A stretch of 64,000 nucleotides of DNA from an uncultured bacterium (GCA_963708045.1 OY970181.1:195740-259739); one strand, 5' to 3'; positions 9,170 to 40,142 are shown, counted from the first letter of the stretch. Notes: generated by a model not told the origin, from the sequence alone. Program-made: numbers and translations.

Positions 9170-9219
9170 GGGCCCATAGTAAAGTGGCATTACGGTCCGA
9201 TGGACATCGGACAGGTTCG
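9170..9219 (+). pseudogene. tRNA-like 5' fragment (acceptor 5' strand + D-arm + 18-nt palindrome replacing the anticodon arm + aggttcg)
   Basis: gggcccatagtaaagtggcattacg is identical to positions 1-25 of the downstream tRNA-Ala. It is followed by gtccgatggacatcggac and aggttcg. The GIY-YIG GTG start overlaps its last 1 nt (9219). Confidence 0.6.
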
Positions 9220-9494
9220 TGAAAAATATGAGATGCTTTGTGTATATTACAGTTTGTTCTAATGGCCAATACTATATCGGAAGCAGTATTGACGTGGCGA
9301 GAAGAATTGACGAGCACAACGCTGGCAAAACAAAATCGCTAGCCAATGTCTTACCAGTAAAACTTGTCTTTAAACAAGCGTTTGAAGATGAATTGACGGC
9401 GAGACGAGTTGAGTATCGGCTTAAACAAAAAAAGAGTAGAATCATCATTGAGAAAATAGTCCAAGAAGGACAGATCAAGTTCTTGGGCCCATAG
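9219..9494 (+). CDS. small GIY-YIG nuclease-domain protein (UPF0213/YhbQ-like)
   Basis: MKNMRCFVYITVCSNGQYYIGSSIDVARRIDEHN...KLVFKQAFEDELTARRVEYRLKQ. GTG start. The TAG stop lies at tRNA-Ala positions 8-10. Confidence 0.7.
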   Translation: MKNMRCFVYITVCSNGQYYIGSSIDVARRIDEHNAGKTKSLANVLPVKLVFKQAFEDELTARRVEYRLKQKKSRIIIEKIVQEGQIKFLGP

Positions 9495-9555
9495 TAAAGT
9501 GGCATTACGCTTCCATGGCATGGAAGAGGTTCGGGTTCGATTCCCGATGGGTCCA
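9485..9555 (+). tRNA. tRNA-Ala(GGC)
   Basis: Hand-folded cloverleaf. Acceptor gggccca/tgggtcc with a G3:U70 pair and A73. D-stem gtaa/ttac. Anticodon stem cttcc/ggaag with loop atGGCat. T-arm tcggg-ttcgatt-cccga. No encoded CCA. Confidence 0.7.
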
Positions 9556-10724
9556 TAAAAAATATCCTCCAATCAAGAGGATGTTTTTTATTTGGCATTA
9601 CGGTCCGATGTCCATCGGACAGGTTCGGGTTCAATTCCCGATGGGTCCATAAAAAATATCCTCCAATCAAGAGGATGTTTTTTATTTGGCATTACGGTCC
9701 GATGTCCATCGGACAGGTTCGGGTTCGATTCCCGATGGGTCCATAAAAAATATCCTCCAATCAAGAGGATGTTTTTTATTTGGCATTACGGTCCGATGTC
9801 CATCGGACAGGTTCGGGTTCGATTCCCGATGGGTCCATAAAAAATATCCTCCAATCAAGAGGATGTTTTTTATTTGGCATTACGGTCCGATGTCCATCGG
9901 ACAGGTTCGGGTTCGATTCCCGATGGGTCCATAAAAAATATCCTCCAATCAAGAGGATGTTTTTTATTTGGCATTACGGTCCGATGTCCATCGGACAGGT
10001 TCGGGTTCGATTCCCGATGGGTCCATAAAAAATATCCTCCAATCAAGAGGATGTTTTTTATTTGGCATTACGGTCCGATGTCCATCGGACAGGTTCGGGT
10101 TCGAATTCCCGATGGGTCCATAAAAAATATCCTCCAATCAAGAGGATGTTTTTTATTTGGCATTACGGTCCGATGTCCATCGGACAGGTTCGGGTTCGAT
10201 TCCCGATGGGTCCATAAAAAATATCCTCCAATCAAGAGGATGTTTTTTATTTGGCATTACGGTCCGATGGACATCGGACAGGTTCGGGTTCGATTCCCGA
10301 TGGGTCCATAAAAAATATCCTCCAATCAAGAGGATGTTTTTTATTTGGCATTACGGTCCGATGTCCATCGGACAGGTTCGGGTTCGATTCCCGATGGGTC
10401 CATAAAAAATATCCTCCAATCAAGAGGATGTTTTTTATTTGGCATTACGGTCCGATGTCCATCGGACAGGTTCGGGTTCGATTCCCGATGGGTCCATAAA
10501 AAATATCCTCCAATCAAGAGGATGTTTTTTATTTGGCATTACGGTCCGATGGACATCGGACAGGTTCGGGTTCGATTCCCGATGGGTCCATAAAAAATAT
10601 CCTCCAATCAAGAGGATGTTTTTTATTTGGCATTACGGTCCGATGTCCATCGGACAGGTTCGGGTTCGATTCCCGATGGGTCCACCAAAAAATCATACCT
10701 ATTTGGGTATGATTTTTTGTTTTA
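9556..10724 (+). repeat. tandem array: terminator + 12 head-to-tail 94-bp copies of [tRNA 3' part (D-loop 3' half, 18-nt palindromic arm, T-arm, acceptor 3' strand) + intrinsic terminator]; last copy ends gggtccaCCA with a distinct terminator
   Basis: ggcattacggtccgatgKccatcggac starts at 9594, 9688, 9782, 9876, 9970, 10064, 10159, 10253, 10347, 10441, 10535 and 10629. Each unit ends in atcctccaatcaagaggat + T-run. Copies are near-identical. Variants: loop tgtcca vs tggaca (copies 8 and 11), ttcaattcc (copy 1), ttcgaattcc (copy 6). Confidence 0.9.
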
Positions 10725-10803
10725 TCCGGTTGGTAAATTTAAAACCCGCGTCATAACTTTTGGAAATGACGCGGGGCGGGACAAATCTTTGTCGCGCCAA
10801 TTT

Positions 10804-11223
10804 TTAGATTGGCGCTTTTTGCTGCGTTAGAAGGTGCTCGTACATCATTTCCCATTCCCACACGCCGGATCTGCGGGTCCACGTCTCCCTATCAAACTCA
10901 ATTACCGTTACCCGGTCGGTGGCGTTAGCGTCCGAAAGTGGGTGTTGCCTGATCATATCTCTACTGGAGAGAACGATGACCAGGTTGGTGCCGCTATGAG
11001 CCGCCGCGGTTGCAATCCTTATGAGCTCAGAAACGATCGTGTGATTATCGGGTCGCCTGATAATGAAAATGTTGAACGGGTCACCGTTCTCGTGACTGCT
11101 TTTCAGAGCATCACCGGCCGCAATCGTGCCATCGGCAAACTCGGATTTCCAACCTGCCGGCATTGAGTGCATCAGCGCATTGGTCTCAGGTCTATCAACA
11201 CAAAGCGTCAGTAATACTCTCAT
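10804..11223 (-). CDS. hypothetical protein (139 aa, Rossmann-like alternation, no family recognised)
   Basis: Intact ORF, GC-richer than core genes. Lies immediately beside the tRNA-derived array. Confidence 0.4.
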   Translation of the reverse strand: MRVLLTLCVDRPETNALMHSMPAGWKSEFADGTIAAGDALKSSHENGDPFNIFIIRRPDNHTIVSELIRIATAAAHSGTNLVIVLSSRDMIRQHPLSDANATDRVTVIEFDRETWTRRSGVWEWEMMYEHLLTQQKAPI

Positions 11224-11437
11224 TTGACCAAGGTCCTTTCTTGGATGTTTGTTGTCTTTCAGAGCACCGACACGCCAGCTTACACAGCCAAACGCATCAT
11301 GTCAATAAAACCATTTATACATACGGTTTGATAACCCCAACGCTTAAACCATTGACAATTTTAGAAAAAAATGATACTACAAGCTGTGAATTCTCAGAAA
11401 TTCAGAACGACCGATACAGTAGAAAGAAGGAGACCAG

Positions 11438-12466: not shown

Positions 12467-12536
12467 GGGAAACGACCCTTGGAACGCGAAACCGCGACGC
12501 ATCAGCGTCGCGGTTTCTTTGTGTCCGTTTATTAAA

Positions 12537-14960: not shown

Positions 14961-15061
14961 ATTATATTTAATAAATTAAAGCTTGTATGATTATAACATA
15001 TTTGGCGGCAACAAAAAATGGGGACGCGTGATAAACCTACTTTGTTAAATGATGGTTTTAT

Positions 15062-16740: not shown

Positions 16741-16794
16741 TTGCGTATTAAAACCAAAATAAAATCTTTGATTTAAATTTTTACGGGCATTTTA

Positions 16795-19700
16795 TTATTC
16801 CTGCGACACGGGAATTGTTTCTGTCGGTGTTGGTTCAGCTTGAGGCGCCGGACTAATTTCGGCGGACGGTTCGGAAACTGTGGGCTCGGGCATTGGTTCG
16901 TCCGTCGGCGGCGCGCTTTCGGCCGCGGGTTCATTTATGGTATCGGGGTCGGTTGCTGGTTCATTCACCACGGGTTCTTCGGTTGACGGCGTTGTTGTAA
17001 CGGGTTCAACGGGTGGCGTTGGCGTATTTGTAACAGGTTCGTTAACGACCGGAACGGGAGCGGGCGGAGCGGACGGCGCGTTCACGTTTTGTTGACTATT
17101 AAGCAATTGGTCTAGTTGATCTTTGGTAATGCACGTTTCGTTTCCGGTTTTAGCATCACCCACACAAAGTTTGCGCTGGTGCGTTTCATCAAAGTAGCCA
17201 CGGATCGCAGTTACCCGTGCGGCGACAAAGTCGGCAGCAATCTTAGCACCGGCGTTTATTCGGTCAATAAGAGCAGCGATCGGGTCGTGTGGTGTTTCGG
17301 CTTGAATGTCTAGAGCAAAAGATGTAATGCCGTTCGGCAAATCCTTGGAATCAATCAAGCGACCCATAACAAGTGACAGTGCCGGTTCGTCACCAGGATA
17401 ATAAGTATTTTTTATCAACATAATCGCTTCGCTCGCGTCATCGCCATTTGCAGACGAAAGAACCTGACCAATGACGAAACCAGGCGAAGTTGCTTTCATC
17501 GCAACTCCCGGCACCGACGACAAGGTCAAATAATCTCCAGCTCCAATTGCGCCGTTTTCGTCGGAGACCTTAACTGGAACACGACCAGCAAGAGCGAGGC
17601 GAACCGAATGACCATCGTCTTTACCAAGCGTGGTATGTGGGAGAGTAGAAACAACGCCAATTAATTTTTTATTATCTGTTCCCGACGAACGGACAACGGT
17701 TACGGGATTATTAGTGTCCAGACTGACCAACTCGCCGGCAACCGGTTCGTCGCCGGAATAAGGGATCCATTCCGCCAAGTCGGCCGAGTCGGCCGTTCCC
17801 GGCGTGCCGACGACGCGCCAAGCGCCGTTTGCGCGGACAATGGTGTAGTTTTCAATGATTACCACCGAGTTGGTATTGGCGGCACCGGCAGTAACCGTAC
17901 TAACCTGCGTACCGTTTACCTGAACAATGATCGTCGCGTTTTCATTGGCGCCACCACCAACGCCAATGCGTTGAACCTGAGTTTCAATGAAAGCAAACGT
18001 ACCGTCGGTGTTTGGTAATCCAGTAATATTAAAGGTGGTGGTTGGCGCCGCGCCTTGCGTGCCATTTCCTGTTGAACAAGTAGTTGTCACATTGCAAAGG
18101 CTCAAAAAATAAACAAGCGCTTTGGTTGAGACCGTTACCGTGTCGTTGGCTGTGGTTAGGTGGACGTTGTTCAAGCTGTTGCCGCCCCAGTTGCCGGCGA
18201 CATCAATAGTGCGGCCAGTCGTAGCGCTCGGGGTCACGCCGATTGTTAAACCTTGATCCCATCCGGCACCAATGTTGATCGCCGTTTCTGTTCCGGCGCC
18301 GCCGGTGATATTAGAGATACCCAAACCGTTCAATGATCCGGCGCCGATGCCCGCGGCGGCAATCTCAACGCCGTTTGCTGTTCCGTTGGTCGTGATCGTA
18401 CCAGTGTTTACCATGACGCCACTTGCCGTGACTGCGCCGCCGGCGGATTGCGTGATTCCCGGCAGGGTGACATTGACGCCGTGCCAGAGGAATGATCCAG
18501 CTGTCCCGTTCGTGATCGCGCCAGCCGTTGTCAAATTGTAGCCGTTATAAATGGTTGCGTTAGAAGTTGTTGAGGCGGTCGGCAGTTTCAAATCAAAACC
18601 GGTGATATTTTGTCCGGCGGATGGCGCGGTCAAGTTGGCGTTCATATCAAAAGCAAGCCCGATCAAAGCGCCTGCGCCTTGATTCGTCGCTGCGCCGTAA
18701 GCGCCGTTCATGATCGTGCCGGTGGTGTTGGTAAAATTAATGTCCACGATTTTTCCGGAAGTCGAAGTTGAGTTAAGCCGCAACAAAGTTCCGGAGGTAA
18801 GCGAGGTATCGTTAAAGACAAAGGACGAAGCCGTCGTCACACCGGTCGCATTTGACGAAGTAAAAGTTTGTGCGCCCGTGCCGGAAGTAAAGCCGATAGA
18901 GGCTAAGGAAGAGTTACCGATTATGACCGTGCCGGTTGAGGTGCCAGCGTTAATTGAGGTGTTAAAGTTGGAGTTATCATTCAAACTCACCGCCGCACCG
19001 GAAACGGTGAGGCCGAGATTACCAGTAAGCAAACCCGCTGAGGTGATTGTACCGCTTCCCGTTGTTGAAATGTTGTTTGACGTTGAAATCGTGTTCGCGG
19101 TCGCAATCGTGCCAAAGCCGGAGGCGATGGATCCAGAAGTAAGAATGCCAACCGTTGTTAAAGAAGAAGTGACCACGCCCGAAGCCAGTGTCGTGCCGGA
19201 AATATCAGCGGCCGCGTTCACGGTGATGGTTGCGTTCGGGAAAGTAATTGTTTTAGAAGTAACCGTCGGATCGGTAATCGCAAAAATTGTTTTCACGGCA
19301 TCGGCGGTCGCACCGTCAAAGGAAAGTGGCGAGGCGCCGGTCACGTTGCCCGAAGAAAGCGTAATGTTTCCGTTCGCGGTAAGGGTTTGAGTGACGGTAA
19401 GCGCGCCATTATTCGTTGTCGTAATCCCCGTCTTGCCCAAGGAAACCGAGGTTGCGCCGGACGTGCCAAGGTTGAGGGCGGAGGCGGAATCAACCGTAAG
19501 CGCGCCCACCAAAGTACTCCAAGTGGAAGCAGCGCCAGCTGTGAGTGTTAAGGCGCCGGACGAAGTTGACCAAGTTGAAGCCGCACCAGCTGTGAGTGTA
19601 AGTGCGCCACCAGAAGTAAACTGTGACGCACTGGTCGGCGTAAGATTAACAGCACCAGCGCCGGTCGCATTAAAATTTCCCGAGGTTAAGGTGTAGGCGA

Positions 19701-22700
19701 TATTCGCGCCCGAGGTCGTGATTGTCGCTCCGTTATCATAAGCTTCTTGAAGCGTTGTCGCGCCCGCGGTATCGCAATCTTTCCAAGCAATATTTTCAAA
19801 ACAACGGAATTTATTCGCGTTAGCGTTATAGTACATCGCGCCAACTGATCCCGTGGGGTCGCCGGCGCTAGATTTTATGTCGGTAACCAAAAGGTCAGGT
19901 GTGGTCACGCCGGCACCAGAACCGATTTGAACATTTGCAGTCTGCCCCGCGCCCGCAACTTGCAGTGAAAGATTTCCCGCGCTCGTGCCCCAGGTAGCGG
20001 CGGCGGCAGAAGTAAGCGTTAAGGCACCGGATGATGATTGCCAAGTTGCCGCGCCGGCCGAAGTAATATTCATTGAGCCCGCAGCAGTCAAAATTGTTGA
20101 TGTACCAAGTGAAACCGTGCCCGAACCAGCTTGGAGCGTTAAATTTCCGGCTGAAGTTGACCAGGTTGAAGCCACGCCAGCGGTAACGGTAATGGCCGCG
20201 CCCGAGACAACACCAATCGCGCCAGCCGCCCCACTCCCAATTGTCACCGTTCCCGTGGACGTTCCATTATTAATATTTGTATTAAAATTTGACGAAGAGT
20301 TTAAATTAACCGCCGCGCCCGTAACATTCAAACCAAGCGAGCCAGTAAGCAGTTGACTCGCGGTTAAGGCGCCGTTTATTGTTGTGGTTATTCCGCTTCG
20401 CGAAATGGAAATTGCCGAGGCATTCGTCGTGCCAACGTTCACCGTTCCCGCCGTACCCGTCGCCGTTCCCGCGTCAATCGTGACGTTACCAGAATTTGAT
20501 GTTGCCCCACCAGCATTTCCCGTAACAAGCGACACGGCGGCGGAATTGGTAGAGCCGGCGGTTTGATTTAAAGTTTTTAATGTAAGGGTGCCGGTGCTTC
20601 CCGAAGAAATCGTTGTCGTTTGGGCAAAAGTTAGGTTGCCCAGATTATCAATCCGCGCGCGTTCAACCGGCGAACCGACATTAAGCGTTTCAAAACGGAT
20701 CGCGCCGGTTTCGGCGCCTGGCGTCACGTTGGTAAGAATTCCAGAAAGCCGCGCGGCCGGGACTTCGGTGCCAATATTATTTTGCGCGCGCAAAAGCATT
20801 CCCACGCCAAGACCGGCAGCCGGCGTGCCCGAGGTTGCATGTTCCAAAACAAGAACGTCGGAAATGTCGTTATTGATCGCGTCTTCTTGTTCCACATAAA
20901 GCTTAGTACCAGTATGCGGCGTACTAGTTCCAAGGCTAAGCTGTTTACTCGCGTTGTCCCAGTAAAATTCATTATCGCCCGTTTGCGTATTTGATCCGTT
21001 CCAAAAAGAAACTTGTCCGGACGTACCTGTACCCGACACACTCGCGCCGCCAGCGCAGTCAATCCAAGCATTATCAATGTAGCAGCGAAAAGTTTTAGTA
21101 ACCGTATTATAATAGGTGGCGCCGTTGGTTGACGGCGGGGTGGCGGGGTCGGAGGCTTTGTTTGAAAAAATTAAAAGCGACGAGTTGGCAATTTTAATAT
21201 TTCTTGTCGCCGAAAGATTAAGGTCGGTTGTTGCGTCAGAGTTTGTAATTGTGTTTGTTCCAGCAGCAAACGTAAGCGTGCCTGATGAAGAAGAAAGTGA
21301 AAGCGCCGCGCCGCCGCCAGACGAAACCGCGAGTGCCCCAGTACTTGCAAGCGAACTACCCGAGAGTGTTGTCGCGCCAGTAACTAGACTTGTGCCAAAA
21401 TAACCCGTGCGCCAGCGATTTCCACTCGCGCCAACATCCAAAGCATTATCGGTTGTACCAGGTTGAAGCGTGCCCACTTCGGTGATGCGCAATTGTTCGG
21501 TCAGAACGCCGCCGCCCACGCGCGTAAAGAAACCAAGCATTGAATCTTCGGTGCCATTTGCGGTGTTGGTTAAGACTGCAGAAATACCACCGCTATCGGC
21601 GAGCGCGCCAGCATCATTTTCATTTCTAAATAAAAGATTTGAACCAATACCGTTTCCGGCCACGGCGGTCGTGGTGTGATCAAGCACAAGAACGGTTGAT
21701 GAATTATTATTAACCGCGTCATCCAACGAAATATCGGCCTTGGTTCCGGCGGGCGGTGCAGTGGCGCCAATTTGCAACTGATCGGCGAAATTTTTCATTT
21801 GATTAATGAGCCCGACTTCGGTCCACGTTCCCAAACAATCTTGCCAAACACCGGCTTTATAGCAACGGAATTTATCATCAGCAGAATTGTAATACATCGC
21901 GCCGTTAACACCACTTGGATCGCCGGAAGTTGATTTGGCGTCCATAACCAATAGATCAGGCGTTGCCGATGGCGCACCCGTTCCAATCTGGATATTTCCC
22001 GTTCCGGAACCGGCAGCAATGAACGAAAGGTTACCTGCCAAAGTTCCCCAAGTGGCGGCCGAAGCCGAAGTTAACGTAAGCGCGCCGGCGGAAGTTGACC
22101 AGGTAGAAGTTGCACCGGCGGTGAATGTCAGCGCACCGGCGGAAGTGAATTGCGACGCGGCGGTTGGCGTAAGGTTAACAGCGCCCGTGCCGGTCGCGTT
22201 AAAGTCGCCCGAAGTTAAGGTGAAAAGAATCGGCGTTGATGACGAGGTTGTTACCGAAGCGCCAGCGTTATAAGCCGTCTGAAGCGTTGTCGTGCCGCCC
22301 GTCGTATCACAGTCTTTCCACCCTCCACCTTCGTAACAGCGAAATTTTGCGGCTATGGAATTGTAATACATGGCGCCGTTCGCGCCCCCCGCAGGATCGC
22401 CAGCGTTTGATTTCAAATCAACAACCAATAAATCAGGCGTTGTTGATCCTCCGGCGCCGATTTGAACATCGGCCGTCACTCCAGTTCCAGCCGCCTGCAA
22501 AGAAAGATTTCCAGCCGACGTTCCCCAAGTTGAAGCCGCGCCGGCGGTAAAAGTGAGCGCACCGGCCGAAGTAAATTGCGAGGCGGCTGTCGGCGTAAGG
22601 TTAACCGCGCCGGTGCCAGTGGCGTTAAAGTCGCCCGAAGTTAAGGTGAAAAGAATCGGCGTTGATGAACCGGTAATAATCGCGTTTCCATTATTATATG

Positions 22701-25700: not shown

Positions 25701-26664
25701 TCGGCGTTAAATTTATCGCTCCCGCGCCAGTCGCATTAAAATTTCCGTTTGCCAAATTAAATAAAATCGCATCTCCCCCACTCGTATTAATTGTTTGGCC
25801 ATTATTATAAACCGATTGCAGGGTTGAAGTACCGCCAGTTGTGTCACAGTCAGCCCACGAACCATTTACAAAACAACGAAATTTATTTGTTAGCGTATTG
25901 TAATATGTCTGACCATTAACACCCGACGGATCAGCGACAGCCGAGCCCAAAATTAAACCGCCGCCGATTGTCGTGAGCATTCCCGCGCTACCCAAATTTA
26001 CATTTTGCGTTAGCGTTAAATTTCCCGAGGCGTCGGTAACCGGCACAAACGCCGAGGCGCCGCCGACAGCCGACGTGCCAAATGAATTTAATTTCAAACT
26101 ATTTAACGATTGATATACCGCCGACATCCGCGTGCGCGGTGTCATTTCGGCATCGGTATTAATTTTTAAACCCAAGTAACGACTGTCGTCGGAAAATATC
26201 GCGTCTGGCAAATTATTTTGTCCGCCCGAAGTTGAGTCGCCTAAAAGTACAGAAAATAATCCATTAGTAACACCGACCGATACCGTCCCAAGCAACCCGC
26301 AATCAGTCGTATTTGCGTTTGCATCAGTATCAGCCGCTGACCAAACACAGGTGCCGCCCGAAGCAGAATCGTAAATAGCGATCTGCATATTGTAAGTTCC
26401 ATTTGCAACATTGCTTCCAGCTGTATCAGTCAACCGTCCTTGGTAATTTAAAAGTCTAACAACACCACTTGCACCAAAGGCCGGCTTAGCAATTCCAAAA
26501 AATAGTGAAGAAAAAATTAAAAACGACAAAACAAAACCAGACCAAGCCGCGCGGCGCGCACTTGGCAAAAAATGTTTCAATGTATTTTTAAAATTCATTG
26601 AATTTGTCTGTTTTTTTATAAACAACAGAACAAATAATTTCTCTGGTCGGTTTATAACAACCAA
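16795..26664 (-). CDS. giant secreted/surface repeat protein (3289 aa)
   Basis: Single uninterrupted ORF. N-terminal signal/TM. Very Gly/Thr/Ser/Ala/Asn-rich with many internal repeats (recurrent ...DPSGVNGAMYYN...KFRCY.NG.W.DCDT.GGT... modules). Globular C-terminal domain followed by a Pro/Thr/Glu-rich tail. Confidence 0.8.
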   Translation of the reverse strand: MVVINRPEKLFVLLFIKKQTNSMNFKNTLKHFLPSARRAAWSGFVLSFLIFSSLFFGIAKPAFGASGVVRLLNYQGRLTDTAGSNVANGTYNMQIAIYDSASGGTCVWSAADTDANANTTDCGLLGTVSVGVTNGLFSVLLGDSTSGGQNNLPDAIFSDDSRYLGLKINTDAEMTPRTRMSAVYQSLNSLKLNSFGTSAVGGASAFVPVTDASGNLTLTQNVNLGSAGMLTTIGGGLILGSAVADPSGVNGQTYYNTLTNKFRCFVNGSWADCDTTGGTSTLQSVYNNGQTINTSGGDAILFNLANGNFNATGAGAINLTPTSASQFTSSGALTLTAGAASVWSTSAGALTLDSATTLNLGTLNAMAITLGKTGITTTVQSDLTTAATLTANGGIVFSSGNILGASPLVFDGATANANKTTFAITDPTSSRTITFKNESGTVAYLSDLSTAGVPTADETQFTVTGFSTQTAPLVRFETFGGADLISFSGTGSVSVAPGQSYTGTGAVNLSSGTGALTITGAGASTWSTTAGNLTLQAGSGIISLGTTTNLNATGALEIASGGANDLSLTAGSGFLHLGAGTNTIINTDLGTNLVLDAEGDIKIADADTLILGSQATDPTGVNGAMYYDTATDKFRCFAGGGWMDCITGGTVTGIGSAGQVAFWNGTNSQTGDSGLFWDNTTKHLGIGTNTTTAPLSVSVNDTANNTYTDVGAFVHSTTGAAANGIGNGLVFLAENSVGTPSLSGRITSILTDVTSGAQDSAFTFQTRTAGGPLTERLRIDDQGFLIPGASDNGQDIGSAVNRWRTGYFGTSVVIGSATYAGSSVTSTGSFTVNATGGLSLASSSGTVSLGAGSNSLSNTDVGTDLIIGSQRNVKIADSSLVVMSSKAADPASPPATNGAMYYNTATNQMRCYLNGVWGGCAVGAFISASGVTRLTTISDQVGIGTASPVADTKLQIVSDDATANDISNVVTIDHTTSGTAAAGIGLGINFRSENDAGSITNVGHINALLTNAASGAEASAISFETRTGGGAATERLRITAAGLLPALTSNAEDIGATGNVWRTAYLGTSAIVNANTTLADGSLATATGNLVFQPAGSGTTANIQIGSGAGSVTPDLLVVDLKSNAGDPTGSVGAMYYNVNLNKFRCYENISWKDCDTSGATTLQSAYDNGSSITTSSSTPILFTLTSGDFNATGTGAVNLTPTAASQFTSAGALTFTAGAASTWGTTSGDLSLDSGSGILKLAAGTNTISNTNATTDIILKATANTKIDDSNLLVLGSQLADPSGVDGAIYYSSATNKFRCYLNGSWSDCDTTGGTVNLQTAYNNGNAIITGSSTPILFTLTSGDFNATGTGAVNLTPTAASQFTSAGALTFTAGAASTWGTSAGNLSLQAAGTGVTADVQIGAGGSTTPDLLVVDLKSNAGDPAGGANGAMYYNSIAAKFRCYEGGGWKDCDTTGGTTTLQTAYNAGASVTTSSSTPILFTLTSGDFNATGTGAVNLTPTAASQFTSAGALTFTAGATSTWSTSAGALTLTSASAATWGTLAGNLSFIAAGSGTGNIQIGTGAPSATPDLLVMDAKSTSGDPSGVNGAMYYNSADDKFRCYKAGVWQDCLGTWTEVGLINQMKNFADQLQIGATAPPAGTKADISLDDAVNNNSSTVLVLDHTTTAVAGNGIGSNLLFRNENDAGALADSGGISAVLTNTANGTEDSMLGFFTRVGGGVLTEQLRITEVGTLQPGTTDNALDVGASGNRWRTGYFGTSLVTGATTLSGSSLASTGALAVSSGGGAALSLSSSSGTLTFAAGTNTITNSDATTDLNLSATRNIKIANSSLLIFSNKASDPATPPSTNGATYYNTVTKTFRCYIDNAWIDCAGGASVSGTGTSGQVSFWNGSNTQTGDNEFYWDNASKQLSLGTSTPHTGTKLYVEQEDAINNDISDVLVLEHATSGTPAAGLGVGMLLRAQNNIGTEVPAARLSGILTNVTPGAETGAIRFETLNVGSPVERARIDNLGNLTFAQTTTISSGSTGTLTLKTLNQTAGSTNSAAVSLVTGNAGGATSNSGNVTIDAGTATGTAGTVNVGTTNASAISISRSGITTTINGALTASQLLTGSLGLNVTGAAVNLNSSSNFNTNINNGTSTGTVTIGSGAAGAIGVVSGAAITVTAGVASTWSTSAGNLTLQAGSGTVSLGTSTILTAAGSMNITSAGAATWQSSSGALTLTSAAAATWGTSAGNLSLQVAGAGQTANVQIGSGAGVTTPDLLVTDIKSSAGDPTGSVGAMYYNANANKFRCFENIAWKDCDTAGATTLQEAYDNGATITTSGANIAYTLTSGNFNATGAGAVNLTPTSASQFTSGGALTLTAGAASTWSTSSGALTLTAGAASTWSTLVGALTVDSASALNLGTSGATSVSLGKTGITTTNNGALTVTQTLTANGNITLSSGNVTGASPLSFDGATADAVKTIFAITDPTVTSKTITFPNATITVNAAADISGTTLASGVVTSSLTTVGILTSGSIASGFGTIATANTISTSNNISTTGSGTITSAGLLTGNLGLTVSGAAVSLNDNSNFNTSINAGTSTGTVIIGNSSLASIGFTSGTGAQTFTSSNATGVTTASSFVFNDTSLTSGTLLRLNSTSTSGKIVDINFTNTTGTIMNGAYGAATNQGAGALIGLAFDMNANLTAPSAGQNITGFDLKLPTASTTSNATIYNGYNLTTAGAITNGTAGSFLWHGVNVTLPGITQSAGGAVTASGVMVNTGTITTNGTANGVEIAAAGIGAGSLNGLGISNITGGAGTETAINIGAGWDQGLTIGVTPSATTGRTIDVAGNWGGNSLNNVHLTTANDTVTVSTKALVYFLSLCNVTTTCSTGNGTQGAAPTTTFNITGLPNTDGTFAFIETQVQRIGVGGGANENATIIVQVNGTQVSTVTAGAANTNSVVIIENYTIVRANGAWRVVGTPGTADSADLAEWIPYSGDEPVAGELVSLDTNNPVTVVRSSGTDNKKLIGVVSTLPHTTLGKDDGHSVRLALAGRVPVKVSDENGAIGAGDYLTLSSVPGVAMKATSPGFVIGQVLSSANGDDASEAIMLIKNTYYPGDEPALSLVMGRLIDSKDLPNGITSFALDIQAETPHDPIAALIDRINAGAKIAADFVAARVTAIRGYFDETHQRKLCVGDAKTGNETCITKDQLDQLLNSQQNVNAPSAPPAPVPVVNEPVTNTPTPPVEPVTTTPSTEEPVVNEPATDPDTINEPAAESAPPTDEPMPEPTVSEPSAEISPAPQAEPTPTETIPVSQE

Positions 26665-27260: not shown

Positions 27261-27290
27261 TTGACAAGTAATTAACTTGTCTGATATATT
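27261..27290 (+). promoter_or_regulatory. sigma70-like promoter (TTGACA-18-TATATT) overlapping a palindrome gacaagtaattaacttgtc
   Basis: ttgacaagtaattaacttgtctgatatatt lies directly upstream of the LAGLIDADG ORF. Confidence 0.5.
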
Positions 27291-27305
27291 GTTCCACGTG
27301 GAACT

Positions 27306-27698
27306 ATGTTATCTGAAGATTTTCTCGCGGGATATATATCTGGTCAAGGCACGTTTATGAATATCAGGGTTAGAAATACTCACTACCCCGTTTTTCAAAT
27401 TAAATCGTCGGTTGATAATTATGGTTTACTGCTTAAAATTGCCAAGTCGTTAAATGCCTTTAACTGTGTTCATAAATACAAACATGGTAAACAAACTTAT
27501 TCAATCTTGATTATCAGAGACCGGCAAACGATTTTAGAAACCCTGATACCACTTTTAAACGATCGGATTGAGGGCGAGAAAAAAACTAAATTTTTTGTGT
27601 GGAGAGATGAGTTTCTAAAAAATTGTTCCACGTGGAACTATAGGGAAATAAAAAATACTAAAAATATCCAAATTGATGACGAGCCCAAAGAAGAGTAG
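27306..27698 (+). CDS. single-motif LAGLIDADG homing endonuclease-like protein
   Basis: MLSEDFLAGYISGQGTFMNIR... carries the LAGLIDADG-type motif. 130 aa, free-standing. Confidence 0.6.
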   Translation: MLSEDFLAGYISGQGTFMNIRVRNTHYPVFQIKSSVDNYGLLLKIAKSLNAFNCVHKYKHGKQTYSILIIRDRQTILETLIPLLNDRIEGEKKTKFFVWRDEFLKNCSTWNYREIKNTKNIQIDDEPKEE

Positions 27699-28116
27699 TT
27701 ATTCCGTATGGAACAATAATCTATACACATATTTGGATTTAACGGCTAATAGTAGGGGAATAATTTGGGGACACAATGTTTATAACTAAAATACACCCCG
27801 TTTATAACGGGGTGTATTTTATTGGACTCTAGGAGAATCGGACTCCTGTCTCCGCAATGCGAATGCGGCGTACTACCACTGTACGAAGAGCCCGAGCGAG
27901 GCGCAAAGTACAAAATAATATTTTGGACTTTTGCCGAGCGAGGGCTCTAAAATCGCGACTACTGTCTTTAAGAGCGATTTTCAGAGCCTACGTATGGATA
28001 TTGGTACTCCACGACTATTTGATTGAATACTAACGTTTGACTGTATATTTATACACAAGTTGACAAATATTTGCAAATGAAATATAGTACCGTACTAGAA
28101 CGAATTTATATTTCAT

Positions 28117-28746
28117 ATGCCAAAATTAATACCAGAACAAAAAATCGCGCTTATAAAGGAACTCCGTAGAACCGGTCACAGTATTCCAGAAATAAGCACT
28201 GTGACCAGTTTACCAAAATCTTCTGTTTTTAGATATATCCAAGGCGTGGATATAGATAAAGACTTTCAAGGACGATTAAATGATCGGCGCCGCGCTTCTA
28301 CCGTTAGAAAAAACAGATTAGTCAACGAATCCAACCGCCACGCAAACGATCTAATAACGAGCATATCAAAAAATGAATTACTTCTTATAACAGCTTCGTT
28401 GTATTGGGCTGAGGGAGCAAAAAAAGATTTTTCTTTTGCAAACACCGACCCAGAAATGGTTAGGTTGTTTATCAATTCGTTACGAAGAAACTTTAATGTC
28501 AAAGATGACGAATTAACGATTAGTATTAGATTATACGAAGATTTAGATGAAAAAATAGCAATAATTTTTTGGTCTAAAATTGTCGGATTCCCTTTGGAGG
28601 GAAAGGTTCATATAAATTTATTAAAGGGAAAGAAGAACGGTAAATTACCTTATGGTATGTGCCGGGTTCGAGTTCGTAAAGCTTCCAAACTGCACAAATT
28701 GATATTTTCAATCATAAATCGTATGATTGATCTTACGCTCCCATAG
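28117..28746 (+). CDS. HTH + LAGLIDADG-like homing-endonuclease-family protein
   Basis: N-terminal resolvase-type HTH (LRRTGHSIPEISTVTSLPKSSVFRY). The central ...LLLITASLYWAEGAKKDFSF... resembles the catalytic helix. The TAG stop lies at tRNA-Arg positions 8-10. Confidence 0.45.
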   Translation: MPKLIPEQKIALIKELRRTGHSIPEISTVTSLPKSSVFRYIQGVDIDKDFQGRLNDRRRASTVRKNRLVNESNRHANDLITSISKNELLLITASLYWAEGAKKDFSFANTDPEMVRLFINSLRRNFNVKDDELTISIRLYEDLDEKIAIIFWSKIVGFPLEGKVHINLLKGKKNGKLPYGMCRVRVRKASKLHKLIFSIINRMIDLTLP

Positions 28747-28808
28747 TTCAATGGATAGAACGAGAGACTCCTAAGCTCTAGATCCATGTTCGATTCATGG
28801 TGGGGGCA
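28737..28808 (+). tRNA. tRNA-Arg(CCT)
   Basis: Hand-folded. Acceptor gctccca/tgggggc (one G-U pair), A73. D-stem gttc/gaac with a GG loop. Anticodon loop ctCCTaa (one A-G mismatch at the base of the stem). T-arm ccatg-ttcgatt-catgg. No encoded CCA. Confidence 0.6.
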
Positions 28809-28821
28809 CTTAGAAAAAAAT

Positions 28822-29886
28822 ATGGACACCAGCTTACTTATAATCATCTGCGTTCTCGTCGGCGTAATTATTTTTTTGAGTTTGCGCAGTCGTAAATCCG
28901 AAAATGGCGACGAGATCGCGAGCAAACTTGGCGACGTTAGAAAAGAACTTCAAGAAAGAATGGATCGGATTGACGACCAGTTGGACAAAAAACTTCAACA
29001 CTCGCATTCAACGATTCAGGAAAACTTTAAACAGACTTCAAAAATTATTTCCGACGTCACGGAAAAATTAGTTACCTTGGACAATACCAATAAACAGGTT
29101 TTGGATTTTTCTTCACAGTTGCAAAATTTGCAAAACATTTTAAAAAATCCAAAACAGCGCGGGGTACTTGGTGAGTACTGGTTGGAAACACTGCTCGCAA
29201 ACGTTTTGCCAAAAGACGGATACAAAATGCAATACGCAATGGGCGAGGATGAAAAAACCGGTAAGGCGCTAATTGCCGACGCGGTTATTTTTATTCGCGA
29301 TTTAATTATTCCGATTGACGCAAAATTTAGTTTGGAAAACTATAACCGGATGGCGGCAGAAAACGATCTTGCCAAACACGAAGAGTTGGAAAAACAATTT
29401 AAGGCCGACGTTAAAATTCGCATTGATGAAACTTCAAAATACATCCGCCCGGAAAAGGGGACAGCCAATTTTGCCTTTATGTTTATTCCTGCCGAAGGAG
29501 TTTATTACAACCTTTTGAATGCCGAGGTTGGTTCGGGAATTAGCAGCCGCGACTTGGTAAAATATTCCGCCGACAAACACGTGATGATTGTTTCGCCGAC
29601 TTCGTTTTATGCTTACCTGCAAACGGTTTTGCTCGGACTGCGCGAACTACAATTGGAAAAATCAACAACCGAAATTATTAAAAAGGTGGGAGAACTTGGA
29701 AAACACTTTGCGGTTTATTCCGACTATCATAAAAAATTGGGAATGAATTTGGGCACGGTCGTTAATCAATTTAATTTAGCGTCTGGCGAACTGCGCAAGG
29801 TTGGCAAAGATGTTTCAAAAATTTATTCCGGCGAAACCGGCGAAGTCTTGGATACCGAAGTTGTCATAAAGCCGCTTTTGGAATAA
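28822..29886 (+). CDS. rmuC: DNA recombination protein RmuC
   Basis: N-terminal TM + coiled coil, then QRGVLGEYWLETLL and FMFIPAEGVYY. The start is trimmed to MDTSLL so the gene does not overlap the tRNA. Confidence 0.8.
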   Translation: MDTSLLIIICVLVGVIIFLSLRSRKSENGDEIASKLGDVRKELQERMDRIDDQLDKKLQHSHSTIQENFKQTSKIISDVTEKLVTLDNTNKQVLDFSSQLQNLQNILKNPKQRGVLGEYWLETLLANVLPKDGYKMQYAMGEDEKTGKALIADAVIFIRDLIIPIDAKFSLENYNRMAAENDLAKHEELEKQFKADVKIRIDETSKYIRPEKGTANFAFMFIPAEGVYYNLLNAEVGSGISSRDLVKYSADKHVMIVSPTSFYAYLQTVLLGLRELQLEKSTTEIIKKVGELGKHFAVYSDYHKKLGMNLGTVVNQFNLASGELRKVGKDVSKIYSGETGEVLDTEVVIKPLLE

Positions 29887-31226: not shown

Positions 31227-31229
31227 TTT

Positions 31230-33300: not shown

Positions 33301-33363
33301 AGGTGTGTGTATTTTAAACAGTCTAACGCGATTACGCAACAATATTGACATTTTGCCAATTTT

Positions 33364-33711: not shown

Positions 33712-33862
33712 CGAGCGCCGAATTTGCCCAGGGTTCGCCTGAGCAAAACAAAGAGCCAAACACTTCAGGTGCGCGGCTCTTTTTAAATATCAAGATAATA
33801 AAAATTTCAAAACCCACCAGCGGTCGTTAGACATGGTGGGTTTGCGCGGTTTCCTGGGTCGT

Positions 33863-34378: not shown

Positions 34379-34479
34379 ATATTTAATGAACGATTTTGAC
34401 CAATAAATATATCATTTTTTGCCAATTTTGTCAATCATCAAAAACCCGCGCCAAGCGCGGGTTTTTCTTTTATTTTAAA

Positions 34480-34585
34480 GCCGTCATTCCGAGCCCATGA
34501 GGTCGGTCTGGCCAAGGCGAGGGATCTCGCAGGCGACTTAGAGACGTTGAGTTCCCTCATCGCTCCCGCTCTTCGGGATGACGCC
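34480..34585. repeat. MITE-like palindromic element, copy C (inverted orientation, short form)
   Basis: gccgtcattccgagcccatgaggtcggtctggccaaggcgagggatctcgcaggcgacttagagacgttgagttccctcatcgctcccgctcttcgggatgacgcc. Confidence 0.7.
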
Positions 34586-34598
34586 CGAGGATTAGACA

Positions 34599-37433: not shown

Positions 37434-38058
37434 ATTTAAAGCTTACATTATCCCGCCCGGCATTGCGAGCCACCCCTTGAAAAAACTTTAATAATATACT
37501 AAGTTGTTTTAATAAACACTTAAACATAAATATATGGCTACCATTACCGCTATCGCCATTGCCGCTTTTGCCTGGATGCTCACCATTCTGATTCTTTTTT
37601 TACTGTTTTTCCACGAAGTAATTGAAGGTAGCGAGGGCAATATGGCCGTTAGTTTTATGCTACAAGCCGCGGTGCCGGTCGCCGTTTTTTGGTTTATGAC
37701 CCACCGCGTCGCAACGGGTTTTTAACTTTAAAAAAATTAGCGGAATAGAAAAAACGGCCAGAGCACATCTGACCGTGTTTTTCGAGGAGAGCGAGCGGCA
37801 CTCGTATAGATTAGGTGGGTAGGAGTGCGCTTTTAAAAAAGAACAAAGAAGGATTGGAGGCGTCTGACGGTAAGAGCGACATAGGAGGTGAGGGGAGGGA
37901 AAGGTAGGGAAACGCCCCTCTGAACAGTGACCGAACGGTGGTACCATTTTTCGCTCCAAATCGTCAGACGCCATAACCACCATAACACTATTCCTAAAAA
38001 AGCAAAACCCCCAAGCGATGTCGTGTCGCAAGGGGGGTTACGCGAAGAAAGGTACTTA

Positions 38059-38916
38059 CTATTGTGAAATCGTGGCGGGTGTAGTTGGAAAATACCGTAA
38101 AGAGGATCCGCCAATCCAATCACCGGAAATCAGAGAACACAGATCGGAGCAGTCCGACCACAAGAAGTAATTGAACGGGTGTGAATCAATCATTCCTCTT
38201 GTAGAGTCAAATGGGTCAGCTTGGATATTGCTAGTGACTGTTGACCCCGGATGACCGCCAGAAAACGTTGCCCTAAGATCAAACACCTTTGTGGTACCAG
38301 CCGAGATTATAATCATGTTGTCGGCGGTTACGACAATATCCAAAGATCCTGCAGGATTCTTAATCGCGCCCGTCTCAAGGTCAACACCCCACGTTCCGCC
38401 CGGCACACCGATTGATACAGGGTACGTTGGCGATCCGTTCACAAAAAGTCGTGCGTTGCCAATACTACCTACTTCCCAGAACATAGACGTCACCGTGAAC
38501 CGCTTCAAGGCAATATCTCCAGAAGAAGGAGCGCTGACGGAGAATTTGTAGAACGTTTGTTCTCCGTTTATATACTGGCCGGAGGTGGCAATGGTTGCGA
38601 CCATTGGGTGAATCAGATCAATGACCGTGTCGCTATTTGCAACAAACGAATCGGTTGTTGCCTGACTATCAGGGAGAGAAACCGAATCACTTGCAATCAT
38701 AGTGTCCGCAATCACGGACGCGGTGTCGGGCAACTGACGAACGTCAACCGCTATCTGGGTGTCCGCCGGCAGCGTATCTGGCGGCACCGACGCGTCGCGC
38801 GGGTGTATTGGATCAGGATTTTCCGCGCCGCACCTATCCAACAGGTGAAGCAGGCGAACATCGCACCCGGACAAACCGAGCAAACCGAGAACAAGAGCAA
38901 TGGTAACTGTTTTCAT
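38059..38916 (-). CDS. hypothetical lipoprotein
   Basis: The start is trimmed to MKTVTIALVLGLLGLSGC (lipobox). Ser/Thr/Asp-rich, GC-rich. No family recognised. Confidence 0.45.
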   Translation of the reverse strand: MKTVTIALVLGLLGLSGCDVRLLHLLDRCGAENPDPIHPRDASVPPDTLPADTQIAVDVRQLPDTASVIADTMIASDSVSLPDSQATTDSFVANSDTVIDLIHPMVATIATSGQYINGEQTFYKFSVSAPSSGDIALKRFTVTSMFWEVGSIGNARLFVNGSPTYPVSIGVPGGTWGVDLETGAIKNPAGSLDIVVTADNMIIISAGTTKVFDLRATFSGGHPGSTVTSNIQADPFDSTRGMIDSHPFNYFLWSDCSDLCSLISGDWIGGSSLRYFPTTPATISQ

Positions 38917-39416
38917 GAAACAATCCTTCCTCTGGGTTTTAACGATCCGAAGTTTGTAAGAGAACATTTTGTTCCCAAGAAACAAATGTCTTGCAAAAAG
39001 AGTCTTAAAACACGCATTTCTAGAGAACAAACTAAATAATAATATAGCACGAAATAGCGATTTTGTCAATCATTATAATATCAAAATACGCTTCCCAGCG
39101 AGGAAGCGCATTTGTGTGAGGATCGCTGAATTTACTAAAGAACAAAAAATAACGTGCTTGGCGAACCTGATACCGTTTTTGGTTTCGTCGGATTACCGAC
39201 AAATGAGCGCAAACCGGAGAAACGCTCCAGCCAGCCATCCGATGGATCCAGGAGAATAATCTCCTGCCGCCCCGCGCCTCGAGCGGAGCAGACGACGTCG
39301 TCGTCCGCCAAGCACGTTTTTACCCTAACACAATTAAAATATCTCGCCAAACAAAAAACTCCGTATCTTGTCGGAGTTTTTTAGGCAATAATTATATGGT
39401 AATATAGAATACTGAT

Positions 39417-40064
39417 GTGGGAATTAAATATAGTATCAACGAGACGTTTTTTACCAAATGGTCATCTAATATGGCTTATGTCTTGGGTTTCTTTTGTGCC
39501 GACGGCACAATGATTGATGACAAGATAAGCCGTGGCAAATACGTTCGTTTTATTAATACAGATAAAAATATTCTGATAAAAATTAAGGAGGCACTTAACT
39601 CCGAGCACAACATATATACAACCAAGGCTACAGCAAACCGTAAGGCTAAATACGTATTGAGTATTGGAAACAAAACTATTTATTCAAGTCTGATAGTTCT
39701 TGATTTAACGCCAAATAAATCATTGGACATTGCACCGCCGTCGGTTCCCAAACAATATATCAACGATTTTGTTCGTGGATACTGCGATGGCGATGGTTGT
39801 ATATATATTGAGAAACAGAGCAATACACTTAGGCTGATATTTACTTCTGGAAGCTCAGGTTTTCTTGTCGGTCTTGCGAAAATGATTACATTAATGAGCG
39901 GTGTTAGTATTAAAAATATATTAAACAGCCACCGAAGCTACCAATTGCGATACACACAAAACGACGCCATTACTATACTTCGTAGTATTTACAAAAATAC
40001 AAAATCTGGTCTATACTTGGAACGGAAAAGAAAAATATTCCAAAAATTTATTAAAAACAGATAA
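39417..40064 (+). CDS. double-motif LAGLIDADG homing endonuclease
   Basis: Two motifs, LGFFCADGT and RGYCDGDGC, about 100 aa apart. 215 aa. Ends 4 nt before tRNA-Cys. Confidence 0.7.
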   Translation: MGIKYSINETFFTKWSSNMAYVLGFFCADGTMIDDKISRGKYVRFINTDKNILIKIKEALNSEHNIYTTKATANRKAKYVLSIGNKTIYSSLIVLDLTPNKSLDIAPPSVPKQYINDFVRGYCDGDGCIYIEKQSNTLRLIFTSGSSGFLVGLAKMITLMSGVSIKNILNSHRSYQLRYTQNDAITILRSIYKNTKSGLYLERKRKIFQKFIKNR

Positions 40065-40068
40065 TTTC

Positions 40069-40142
40069 GGCCGCGTGGTGGAGTGGTTACACAAGGGTCT
40101 GCAAAACCCTGTACATCGGTTCAATTCCGATCGCGGCCTCCA
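40069..40142 (+). tRNA. tRNA-Cys(GCA)
   Basis: Acceptor ggccgcg/cgcggcc. U73 discriminator (a Cys identity element). Encoded CCA. Anticodon stem agggt/accct with loop ctGCAaa. T-arm atcgg-ttcaatt-ccgat. Short D-stem. Confidence 0.65.

Follow-up and report, generated by a model that had tools for sequence, protein, structure and literature searches.

SegB, a GIY-YIG endonuclease of phages T4 and T6, cuts inside tRNA genes, in their T loops, and drives the tandem amplification of tRNA-containing repeats by homologous recombination; its homologues co-localise significantly with tRNAs, and SegB is inherited together with neighbouring tRNA genes (PMC13096335, PMC2330249). In the present study we analysed a stretch of 64,000 nucleotides (nt) of DNA from an uncultured bacterium (GCA_963708045.1, OY970181.1:195740-259739), referred to below as the window, in which open reading frames (ORFs) of the homing-endonuclease type adjoin tRNA genes. 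Judged by its neighbour genes (RmuC, a class A penicillin-binding protein and others) and by the source names of homologues, the host is a member of the Patescibacteria, or candidate phyla radiation (CPR). One of the ORFs resembles SegB in being a free-standing GIY-YIG gene adjoining tRNA genes. SegB is a phage protein of ~220 amino acids (aa) with a DNA-binding region, whereas the product here is encoded by a cellular CPR genome and consists of an 88-aa catalytic domain and nothing more, and its ORF, unlike that of SegB, overlaps the 5′ end of the tRNA. The gene is moreover flanked by pseudo-tRNA halves with a conserved palindrome, of which the excerpts of PMC13096335 make no mention.

Other described systems resemble further genes of the window. 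Cyanobacterial tRNA-Arg(CCU) genes carry LAGLIDADG-encoding group I introns at position 36/37, and group I introns are also found in Patescibacteria tRNAs (PMC13011429). The family of a second gene in the window, ORF2, has in common with the cyanobacterial introns the target gene, tRNA-Arg(CCU), the attachment of an endonuclease lineage to one specific tRNA, and essentially the same insertion point, after nt 36-37, which for ORF2 we infer from displaced tRNA remnants. Unlike the tRNA group I introns, no intron is involved here and the downstream tRNA is complete; its function would be kept by duplication of the 5′ half and not by splicing. In fungal mitochondrial DNA, free-standing endonuclease ORFs lie beside partial duplications of the C-terminal ends of cob and atp6 (PMC6279837). 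There, as here, the endonuclease ORF has the intact gene on one side and a second copy of part of its terminus on the other, and in our own reading the fungal cassette supplies a new terminus that takes the place of the old one. The fungal targets are protein-coding, the 3′ (C-terminal) end is duplicated and the setting is an organelle, whereas here the target is a tRNA, the 5′ half is duplicated and the host belongs to a bacterial lineage of the free-living type. Finally, CPR bacteria harbour LAGLIDADG endonucleases in rRNA insertion sequences and introns and in the spacers of rRNA operons (PMC11270868, PMC8172020). These share with the present genes the host phylum, the superfamily of ORF3 and ORF4 and a stable RNA as the target, but they sit in or between rRNA genes; families that are specific for a tRNA and abut its 5′ end are not mentioned in the excerpts of PMC11270868 and PMC8172020. 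A search of full-text literature, of incomplete coverage, gave no description of tRNA-specific free-standing cassettes at the 5′ ends of CPR tRNAs, and none of the replacement of a tRNA 5′ half or of palindrome-bearing pseudo-tRNAs.

We consider it probable that the genes described here are free-standing selfish genes of the homing-endonuclease type that use tRNA genes as homing sites, each lineage being tied to one or a few tRNA genes.

Nuclease-type genes beside tRNA genes

Calling with ARAGORN and Rfam gave four tRNA genes in the window, and each of them is adjoined by an ORF of the homing-endonuclease type:

9219-9494, + strand: small GIY-YIG nuclease gene, 91 aa from GTG 9219; PF01541; GC 0.39
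9485-9555, + strand: tRNA-Ala(GGC), ARAGORN; Rfam RF00005 61.6 bits; cloverleaf fold, intact, G3:U70 pair, CCA not encoded
27306-27698, + strand: ORF4, single-motif LAGLIDADG protein, 130 aa; PF00961 40.8 bits (cut-off 23.1), E 4e-10; GC 0.34
27823-27893, − strand: tRNA-Ala(CGC), ARAGORN; Rfam 59.7 bits
28117-28746, + strand: ORF2, helix-turn-helix (HTH) protein, 209 aa; stop codon TAG formed by tRNA-Arg nt 8-10; GC 0.357
28737-28809, + strand: tRNA-Arg(CCT), ARAGORN; Rfam 60.8 bits
39417-40064, + strand: ORF3, double-motif LAGLIDADG endonuclease, 215 aa; PF14528, PF00961, PHROG 4645; GC 0.349
40069-40142, + strand: tRNA-Cys(GCA), ARAGORN; Rfam 63.5 bits

A preliminary description of this DNA had named three of these pairs, those of the GIY-YIG gene, ORF2 and ORF3, and all three are present, with the ORF on the 5′ side of the tRNA. 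The fourth, ORF4, had been missed; it lies instead on the 3′ side of tRNA-Ala(CGC), tail-to-tail with it and 125 nt from the tRNA 3′ end. The GIY-YIG identity of the first ORF was confirmed by a hidden Markov model search (PF01541, 53.5 bits against a cut-off of 22.6, E 3e-14, model positions 2-74 of 78), and the ORF also matches PHROG 314, ‘homing endonuclease’ (E 2.5e-5). The double-LAGLIDADG label of ORF3 likewise holds: PF14528 matches in two stretches (39 bits, cut-off 22.5, E 1e-9), PF00961 matches residues 121-213 (E 5e-3), and PHROG 4645, ‘endonuclease’, is matched with E 6e-42. Its acidic residues D29 (in D29-G30) and D126 (in D126-G127) are invariant in 26 homologues, and its stop codon was found, as had been said, 4 nt before tRNA-Cys. 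The earlier count of three independent nuclease families therefore stands for GIY-YIG and for LAGLIDADG in the form of ORF3, and falls for ORF2, in which neither a LAGLIDADG fold nor any other nuclease fold could be detected. The GC content of the four ORFs is 0.34-0.39, compared with 0.475 for the whole window.

The linkage to tRNA genes is conserved in other genomes. Homologue loci fetched from these genomes bear numbers that begin with L. In a scan of one genome per GTDB species (185,579 species genomes) we obtained 246 pattern-confirmed relatives of ORF2, of which 80 loci from many CPR classes were fetched. A tRNA-Arg(CCT) call follows the ORF2 relative on the same strand in 78 of the 80, and in L011 the same tRNA is present with a shifted anticodon call; the genes upstream vary from locus to locus. 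Paralogues of ORF2 (24-29% identity) are found ahead of tRNA-Ala(GGC) in L011 and L016, and ahead of tRNA-Arg(TCT) in L061. For ORF3, 146 homologues were found, in CPR and Omnitrophota, and a regular-expression heuristic indicated that in at least 60 of the best 120 the final residues are translated from tRNA-Cys (for example, ...GHVVK or ...RRSAKPLYAGSNP). In all contexts of four different ORF3 homologues (ten loci, L113-L122) tRNA-Cys(GCA) stands at the end of the ORF, and the upstream genes differ (rbfA, rpoZ, unannotated ORFs). Relatives of the GIY-YIG gene abut tRNA-Ala(GGC), Ala(TGC), Val(GAC), Val(TAC), Arg(GCG), Gly(GCC), His and Lys. The adjacency of endonuclease genes to tRNAs thus recurs family-wide and is not random.

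Filled and empty versions of the same site were also found. The spacer between tRNA-Val(GAC) and tRNA-Ala(GGC) is 6-31 nt long in L001 and L007 and 736-750 nt long, with an ORF2 paralogue inside, in L011 and L016. In L049 no endonuclease gene separates tRNA-Cys from an rbfA-like ORF, which extends into the tRNA, and in L120 the order is rbfA, LAGLIDADG gene, tRNA-Cys. Sporadic presence at a fixed site was observed in this way for the ORF2 paralogue, for ORF3 and for the GIY-YIG gene, which precedes 3 of the 22 tRNA-Ala(GGC) genes sampled. In addition, the GC content of ORF2 homologues is below that of the flanks in 54 of 54 loci.

In order to detect displaced pieces of the target, the tRNA downstream of each ORF was aligned to the 300 nt upstream of it and the score was compared with those of 100 shuffles, one test being made for each pair of ORF and tRNA. 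Of the 86 tests, 8 gave a score above the highest of the shuffles. In six of these, all at ORF2 loci, the match begins at tRNA nt 1, namely in L037 (21 of 21 nt), L046, L053, L073, L076 and L078; in L079 the match also begins at nt 1, but its score equals the 95th percentile of its null. At the ORF3 locus L118 the remnant comprises tRNA-Cys nt 1-19. In six of these seven ORF2 loci the remnant extends as far as the anticodon, and a −35-like box follows without a gap; the box is TTGACA in three and a TTG-containing variant in the other three (for example, ...GAGCAGTCCCGTCCTAG followed at once by TTGACA). By this junction the inserted DNA begins, on its left, at about nt 37/38 of a tRNA-Arg(CCU) gene. 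From genome to genome the remnants have a similar anticodon-stem strand, (T/A)CCCGTCCT(A/T)G, while the stems of the functional tRNAs downstream are diverse; the remnants may represent a cut-sensitive allele and the functional copies resistant variants. Together, the family-wide linkage, the filled and empty sites, the low GC content and the displaced 5′ fragments support the earlier suggestion that tRNA genes are preferred landing sites of free-standing cassettes.

In the Omnitrophota locus L118 (2894-2925, 3819-4581), the tRNA-Cys 5′ fragment, GGCGCGGTAGCCAAGTGGTAAG, lies upstream of the ORF3 homologue, and a second LAGLIDADG gene directly abuts tRNA-Leu(TAA). The phenomenon therefore reaches beyond Patescibacteria and to further tRNAs.

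ORF4, the gene on the 3′ side of its tRNA, is accompanied by the following features:

27261-27290, + strand: strong promoter-like site of ORF4, 11 of 12 matches
27289-27307 and 27623-27641, + strand: 19-nt direct repeat TTGTTCCACGTGGAACTAT containing the 14-bp palindrome GTTCCACGTGGAAC

The two repeat copies bracket the gene. The first lies between promoter and start and overlaps the start codon, and the second lies inside the 3′ part of ORF4, 57 nt before its stop; a terminator scan picks up both palindromes. The palindrome GTTCCACGTGGAAC might be recognised by a homodimeric enzyme or might serve as an operator. In the motif of ORF4, LAGYISGQG, the position of the expected catalytic Asp or Glu is taken by Gln, and the protein may accordingly be catalytically dead. 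In a phage database ORF4 had only a weak match, in a mycobacteriophage methylase region. On the minus strand, an ORF of 3289 aa (16795-26664), suspected to encode a giant surface protein, ends ~640 nt before this AT-rich cluster of endonuclease and tRNA genes. Elsewhere in the window, two minus-strand ORFs of 292 aa (44439-45317 and 50992-51870) are 99.7% identical, with an N-terminus that resembles an HTH or a transposase (...FGIAPKTFWKWKKRF...); they are probably copies of one insertion sequence ~6.5 kb apart.

The GIY-YIG gene between pseudo-tRNA halves

The pair formed by the GIY-YIG gene and tRNA-Ala(GGC) is present as first described, yet it is not a simple pair, since the gene sits in a composite of a true tRNA and pseudo-tRNA halves. 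The elements that surround it are as follows:

9117-9145, + strand: weak candidate for a promoter of the sigma-70 type, TCAACA-17-TATATT with TG, which matched at 9 of 12 positions in a consensus scan and precedes both the pseudo-tRNA fragment and the GIY-YIG gene
9170-9219, + strand: 5′ pseudo-tRNA fragment (H5′) seen in the sequence upstream of the GIY-YIG ORF, overlooked in the preliminary description
9527-10693, + strand: tandem array of 94-nt units (TRF; 12.4 copies, 98% identical), downstream of the intact tRNA-Ala and a terminator, also missed before

H5′ consists, in this order, of tRNA-Ala nt 1-26, a perfect 18-nt hairpin, GTCCGATGGACATCGGAC (9195-9212), and AGGTTCG (variable loop and the start of the T stem), after which it is truncated. 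The hairpin stands in place of the 17-nt anticodon arm, and the 30 nt to its left score 52 of 60 against the 5′ part of the local tRNA-Ala. The same architecture was found in L002, L022, L081-L083, L086 and L087. Each unit of the array is a 5′-truncated pseudo-tRNA that starts in the D loop; a hairpin, CCGATG-TC/GA-CATCGG, takes the place of its anticodon arm, and the unit continues through the T arm and the 3′ acceptor strand to a terminator hairpin. The last unit alone has CCA, together with a terminator that differs from the others (10686-10719). The 4-nt loop of GTCCGAT-NNNN-ATCGGAC (in array units at, for example, 9603-9620 and 10262-10279) is GTCC in most copies in the window and is inverted to GGAC, the reverse complement, in three, which are the upstream fragment and units 8 and 11 of the 12 in the array. 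In other genomes the loop reads GTAC, GGTC, GGCC, TAGC or TGTC, so that the half-sites are conserved and the centre is free. Homologous pseudo-tRNA arrays are present in L002 and L081. The array of L002 runs off the end of its contig, and such arrays may therefore break short-read assemblies.

The same composite plan recurs with different tRNA sequences and isotypes. A CCGAT-N3-5-ATCGG hairpin lies next to the gene in 25 of 35 GIY-YIG loci; no palindrome was found in the other 10, some of them truncated at the end of a contig. The 5′ part of a tRNA, scoring 40-52 of 60 in the clearest loci (such as the window, L002, L022, L081 and L086) and lower in L083, L087 and L095, adjoins the left hairpin copy on the left, and the 3′ part adjoins the right copy on the right, scoring 56-66 of 72 in most loci and lower in L090, L091 and L095. 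The ORF and the true tRNA, in either order, are found between the two copies, and the flanks of the hairpins follow the local tRNA. In L095 the acceptor strands of the outer halves pair with each other (GGGCACT / AGTGCCC) and differ from the enclosed tRNA-Val, which argues that one resident gene was split by the insert. The arrangement of pseudo-tRNA, tRNA, ORF and pseudo-tRNA also occurs in CPR lineages that use genetic code 25: the GIY-YIG genes of L101-L108 contain in-frame TGA, and a nearby tRNA has the anticodon UCA (called SeC by ARAGORN). These genes had been considered as pseudogenes, a reading rejected on the fit of the TGA codons and the tRNA(UCA) to code 25. Within the 528 kb of fetched loci that were scanned for it, the hairpin motif is essentially confined to the neighbourhood of GIY-YIG genes. 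The sole other CCGATG-NN-CATCGG in the window, CCGATGACCATCGG at 53325, forms the middle of the GC-rich stem of an ordinary terminator (53310-53345) and is unrelated.

The GIY-YIG protein itself is small. Its homologues begin M(R/K)C, and the start is therefore most likely ATG 9228 (88 aa) and not GTG 9219. The ATG inside the hairpin was also examined as the true start and was rejected; it is in frame in some homologues and out of frame in the window. Among 19 homologues Y9, G21, S22, H33, R62, E65 and E78 are invariant and Y18, I20 and E32 nearly so, and in a closer set R29, Y18 and Y19 are invariant. By analogy, the conserved residues would include the catalytic Tyr of GIY, the Tyr of YIG, the Arg and the metal-binding Glu. 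The architecture of the I-TevI/Seg type was not found, as the protein has 88-91 aa and TIGR01453 gives 26.8 bits against a 56-bit cut-off, over model positions 3-38 only; in Pfam searches the protein is a bare catalytic domain with no DNA-binding module. The ORF ends ...TTG GGC CCA TAG, the last three codons and the stop being provided by tRNA-Ala nt 1-10, and it seems to have no stop of its own.

Conserved half-sites around a variable centre point to sequence-specific recognition, most simply by the nuclease itself. An alternative applies to the GIY-YIG locus only. The locus could be a recombination unit or transposon-like unit bounded by CCGAT-N4-ATCGG, in which the nuclease recognises or cuts the palindrome as the ends or att site of the element and the pseudo-tRNA halves are the split target. 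The occurrence of the palindrome on both sides of the ORF and tRNA, its constancy across isotypes and genomes while the flanks change with the local tRNA, its near restriction to GIY-YIG neighbourhoods, the variability of its centre, inverted in some copies, and the absence of a DNA-binding module from the 88-aa protein are all what such a unit would lead one to expect. However, we know of no precedent for a transposase that consists of a GIY-YIG domain only, the palindromes are intact in the genome that bears the element, so that self-cutting would have to be tolerated, and the 10 loci that have no palindrome, even if some are cut off by contig ends, are not accounted for. We regard this explanation as unlikely, though deserving of some weight.

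The ORF2 family and stop codons in tRNA genes

Two promoter-like sites belong to ORF2 and its tRNA:

28060-28088, + strand: ORF2 promoter candidate, TTGACA-17-TATAGT, 11 of 12 matches
28699-28727, + strand: promoter-like site in the 3′ end of ORF2, TTGATA-17-TATGAT, 10 of 12 matches; its −10 box ends 9 nt before tRNA-Arg +1

ORF2 begins with a three-helix HTH, which is followed by a long helix and, at the C-terminus, by an alpha/beta domain without an assigned fold, in which the motif LYWAEGxKxD...GKKxGKLxYGMCRVR is invariant. Its 398 homologues are all unannotated and are ~207 aa long, and the alignment shows that many of their tails (SPRSSMDRTV..HS, VPIAQLDRAS) are translated tRNA 5′ sequence. 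AlphaFold predicted the structure with confidence (predicted local distance difference test score, pLDDT, of 91 for the full length and 92.5 for the C-terminal domain alone, with a predicted template modelling score, pTM, of 0.84 for the latter). ORF2 had been labelled ‘HTH+LAGLIDADG-like’, of which only the first half survives. Pfam gave weak HTH matches only, a profile search of PDB sequences returned HTH proteins only, and the HTH resembles the DNA-binding domains of Hin, IS30 and Sleeping Beauty. No LAGLIDADG match to ORF2 was found in Pfam, NCBIfam or PHROG, the alignment of the ORF2 family with the ORF3 family by hhalign had a probability of 0.2%, and Foldseek searches of PDB, made both with the complete model and with the isolated C-terminal domain, gave no LAGLIDADG entry in the top 50 (best E 5e-3, TM score <0.4). 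Membership of ORF2 in the LAGLIDADG family was rejected on these results. Foldseek against BFVD yielded nothing convincing, Pfam found HTH only in three ORF2 paralogues, and the phage database contained no relatives of ORF2. The sole resemblance left is that of the motif xASLYWAEG, common to the paralogues, to LAGLIDADG. In its genomic distribution ORF2 behaves like a homing endonuclease gene, and its product is presumably catalytic.

The arrangement around ORF2 can be duplicated and can decay. In L003 a decayed tRNA-Arg(CCT) pseudogene follows the ORF2 homologue and an intact tRNA-Arg(CCT) lies upstream (2780-2880, 3600-3680); the intact tRNA is preceded by a remnant, ttacaaGCCCTCGTAGTTTAAT, which repeats the junction of the ORF end with the tRNA 5′ end. 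ORF and tRNA appear to have been duplicated here as one unit, and the locus would represent the degenerate state expected of a homing cycle. In the window, ORF2, tRNA-Arg and rmuC are packed on one strand with no terminator between them. The mechanically called ORF of the RmuC-family gene, 28786-29886, starts inside tRNA-Arg; its true start is likely ATG 28822, 13 nt after the tRNA.

Such packing, the scans having found no terminator between ORF and tRNA for either the GIY-YIG gene or ORF2, would also fit a conserved functional operon, in which the ORFs, and especially the HTH-bearing ORF2, are vertically inherited, co-transcribed partners of their tRNAs (for example, a transcription or processing factor for tRNA-Arg(CCU)) and are not mobile. 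The linkage in 78 of 80 loci and L011, across many CPR classes, is as an operon would have it, and so is a protein that has an HTH and no recognisable nuclease domain. An operon does not lead one to expect a GC content below the flanks in every one of the 54 loci, displaced tRNA 5′ halves that abut the ORF promoter, paralogues at other tRNAs, sites both filled and empty, or the duplicated and decayed arrangement of L003. Moreover, only 246 matches were obtained from the 185,579 species genomes, and the same geometry is shared by two unrelated bona fide endonuclease families, GIY-YIG and LAGLIDADG. We therefore judge the operon improbable.

The preliminary description had also drawn attention to the stop codons. 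It was correct that TAG is formed by tRNA nt 8-10 in both the GIY-YIG ORF and ORF2, the latter ending ...CTC CCA TAG. It had further proposed that RNase P, by cleaving a co-transcript at tRNA position +1, would leave a non-stop mRNA, and the stop within the tRNA would then be a selected device that limits the expression of a toxic nuclease. The geometry permits this for both genes of the window, and a co-transcript would suit the absence of a terminator noted above. Analysis of the homologues does not uphold a designed stop. TAG occupies positions 8-10 in 77 of 79 tRNA-Arg(CCT) genes and in 142 of all 180 tRNAs (79%) in the fetched loci, and is thus generic. Relative to tRNA +1, the stops of 77 ORF2 homologues start at +8 (n=20), +13 (n=2), +21 (n=2), +36 (n=15; TAA from U36-A37-A38), +37 (n=4) and +43 (n=5), and 29 lie upstream of the tRNA, so that 62% fall within the tRNA and 38% before it, with the three frames used about equally. 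From the generic TAG and the use of all frames, the overlap of ORF2 appears to be a by-product of tight abutment and not a conserved device. Only the GIY-YIG family keeps the +8 frame consistently, in most loci and with different tRNAs, and this, along with the majority of ORF2 homologues that stop inside the tRNA, is the better side of the regulatory explanation; ORF3 of the window stops before its tRNA. The tRNA also need not depend on the transcript of the ORF, since promoter-like sites scoring at least 9 were found in the last 55 nt of the ORF in 14 of 80 loci, compared with 5 of 320 control windows inside the ORF. The site at 28699-28727 is possibly the own promoter of tRNA-Arg, for which these counts are suggestive only. 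Taken together, a selected regulatory stop seems distinctly improbable to us.

That the genes adjoin by chance because the genome is compact, or that they belong to common islands of the integrase type at tRNA genes, has virtually nothing left to recommend it: CPR genomes are gene-dense and tRNA genes are classical integration sites, but family-wide linkage in unrelated contexts rules out chance (by our own rough estimate three co-oriented immediate adjacencies among ~55 genes, 4 nuclease-type ORFs and 4 tRNAs have a probability of ~1e-5), no integrase domain was matched in any of the four ORFs by Pfam, NCBIfam or PHROG, the ORFs of the three named pairs stand at the 5′ end of the tRNA and the segment duplicated beside ORF2 and ORF3 relatives is the tRNA 5′ part, whereas integrase islands involve the 3′ segment, and Rfam at its gathering threshold found no group I intron (RF00028) or other intron in the window, the tRNAs downstream of the ORFs being complete (60-64 bits) and not interrupted by a ribozyme.

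Proposed homing of tRNA-splitting cassettes

Homing into tRNA genes, the explanation that we prefer, could proceed as follows. The nuclease would cut a tRNA gene that lacks the cassette, and repair would copy the donor cassette, composed of the promoter of the ORF, the nuclease ORF and a replacement for the 5′ portion of the tRNA. For the ORF2 family this portion would be nt 1-37, with insertion in the anticodon loop. The new 5′ portion would join the resident 3′ portion to form a working tRNA immediately after the ORF, and the displaced original 5′ portion would stay upstream and decay. If the tRNA 5′ end is part of the cassette, the ORF would always run up to or into the tRNA, and an ORF that enters it would stop at whichever tRNA stop is in frame (TAG from U8-A9-G10, or TAA from U36-A37-A38 in tRNA-Arg(CCU)). 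In the GIY-YIG variant, a whole replacement tRNA would be carried, the insert would sit between the two halves of the resident tRNA, and the anticodon arm of both halves would be replaced by the conserved palindrome. Recombination between the resulting repeats may then have expanded one half to the 12-copy array, possibly stimulated by the nuclease as for phage SegB; the array would grow by unequal recombination between identical T-arm and trailer segments.

Several points weigh against homing. The nuclease activity and cleavage sites of all four proteins, together with the homing process and the role of the palindrome, are inferred, and no nuclease domain or fold can be recognised in ORF2. 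Only ~9% of loci retain a detectable remnant, and neither ORF2 nor ORF3 of the window has a detectable tRNA remnant upstream. The functional tRNA downstream keeps an intact anticodon arm, so that immunity of the cassette-bearing allele needs an extra assumption, either stem differences or recognition that spans the junction. The divergence of ORF2 correlates with that of the tRNA 5′ half at r = +0.10 and with that of the 3′ half at −0.06, which is the predicted direction but too weak to use. The patchiness of ORF2 at tRNA-Arg(CCT) rests on the 246 matches among 185,579 species genomes and on an assumed number of Patescibacteria among these genomes. Finally, a simple homing model does not explain the conserved palindrome of the GIY-YIG loci.

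More tentatively, and with somewhat less than even confidence, we suggest that Patescibacteria and some neighbours such as Omnitrophota harbour undescribed mobile cassettes that split tRNA genes and restore them with a replacement tRNA half or a whole tRNA instead of by splicing. These would include ORF2 as a nuclease of new fold for the anticodon loop of tRNA-Arg(CCU), and minimal GIY-YIG elements of 88 aa for which the palindrome serves as a recognition or recombination site that generates arrays.

Two routes by which selfish endonucleases enter genes for stable RNAs are known, self-splicing introns and plain intergenic free-standing genes. If the present proposal is true, it adds a third, in which the gene inserts into a tRNA and brings its own replacement piece. 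It explains an oddity of CPR annotation, namely hypothetical ORFs whose C-termini are translated tRNA. ORF2, as a well-conserved family with a confidently predicted fold that has no assignment, may be a new site-specific nuclease, and the minimal GIY-YIG enzyme has a candidate palindromic site of 14-18 bp; both proteins are of possible interest for genome engineering. For the organisms themselves, the cassettes could shape tRNA evolution and the structure of tRNA clusters in reduced genomes, through resistant stem variants and pseudo-tRNA arrays, and could cause contig breaks in metagenome-assembled genomes.

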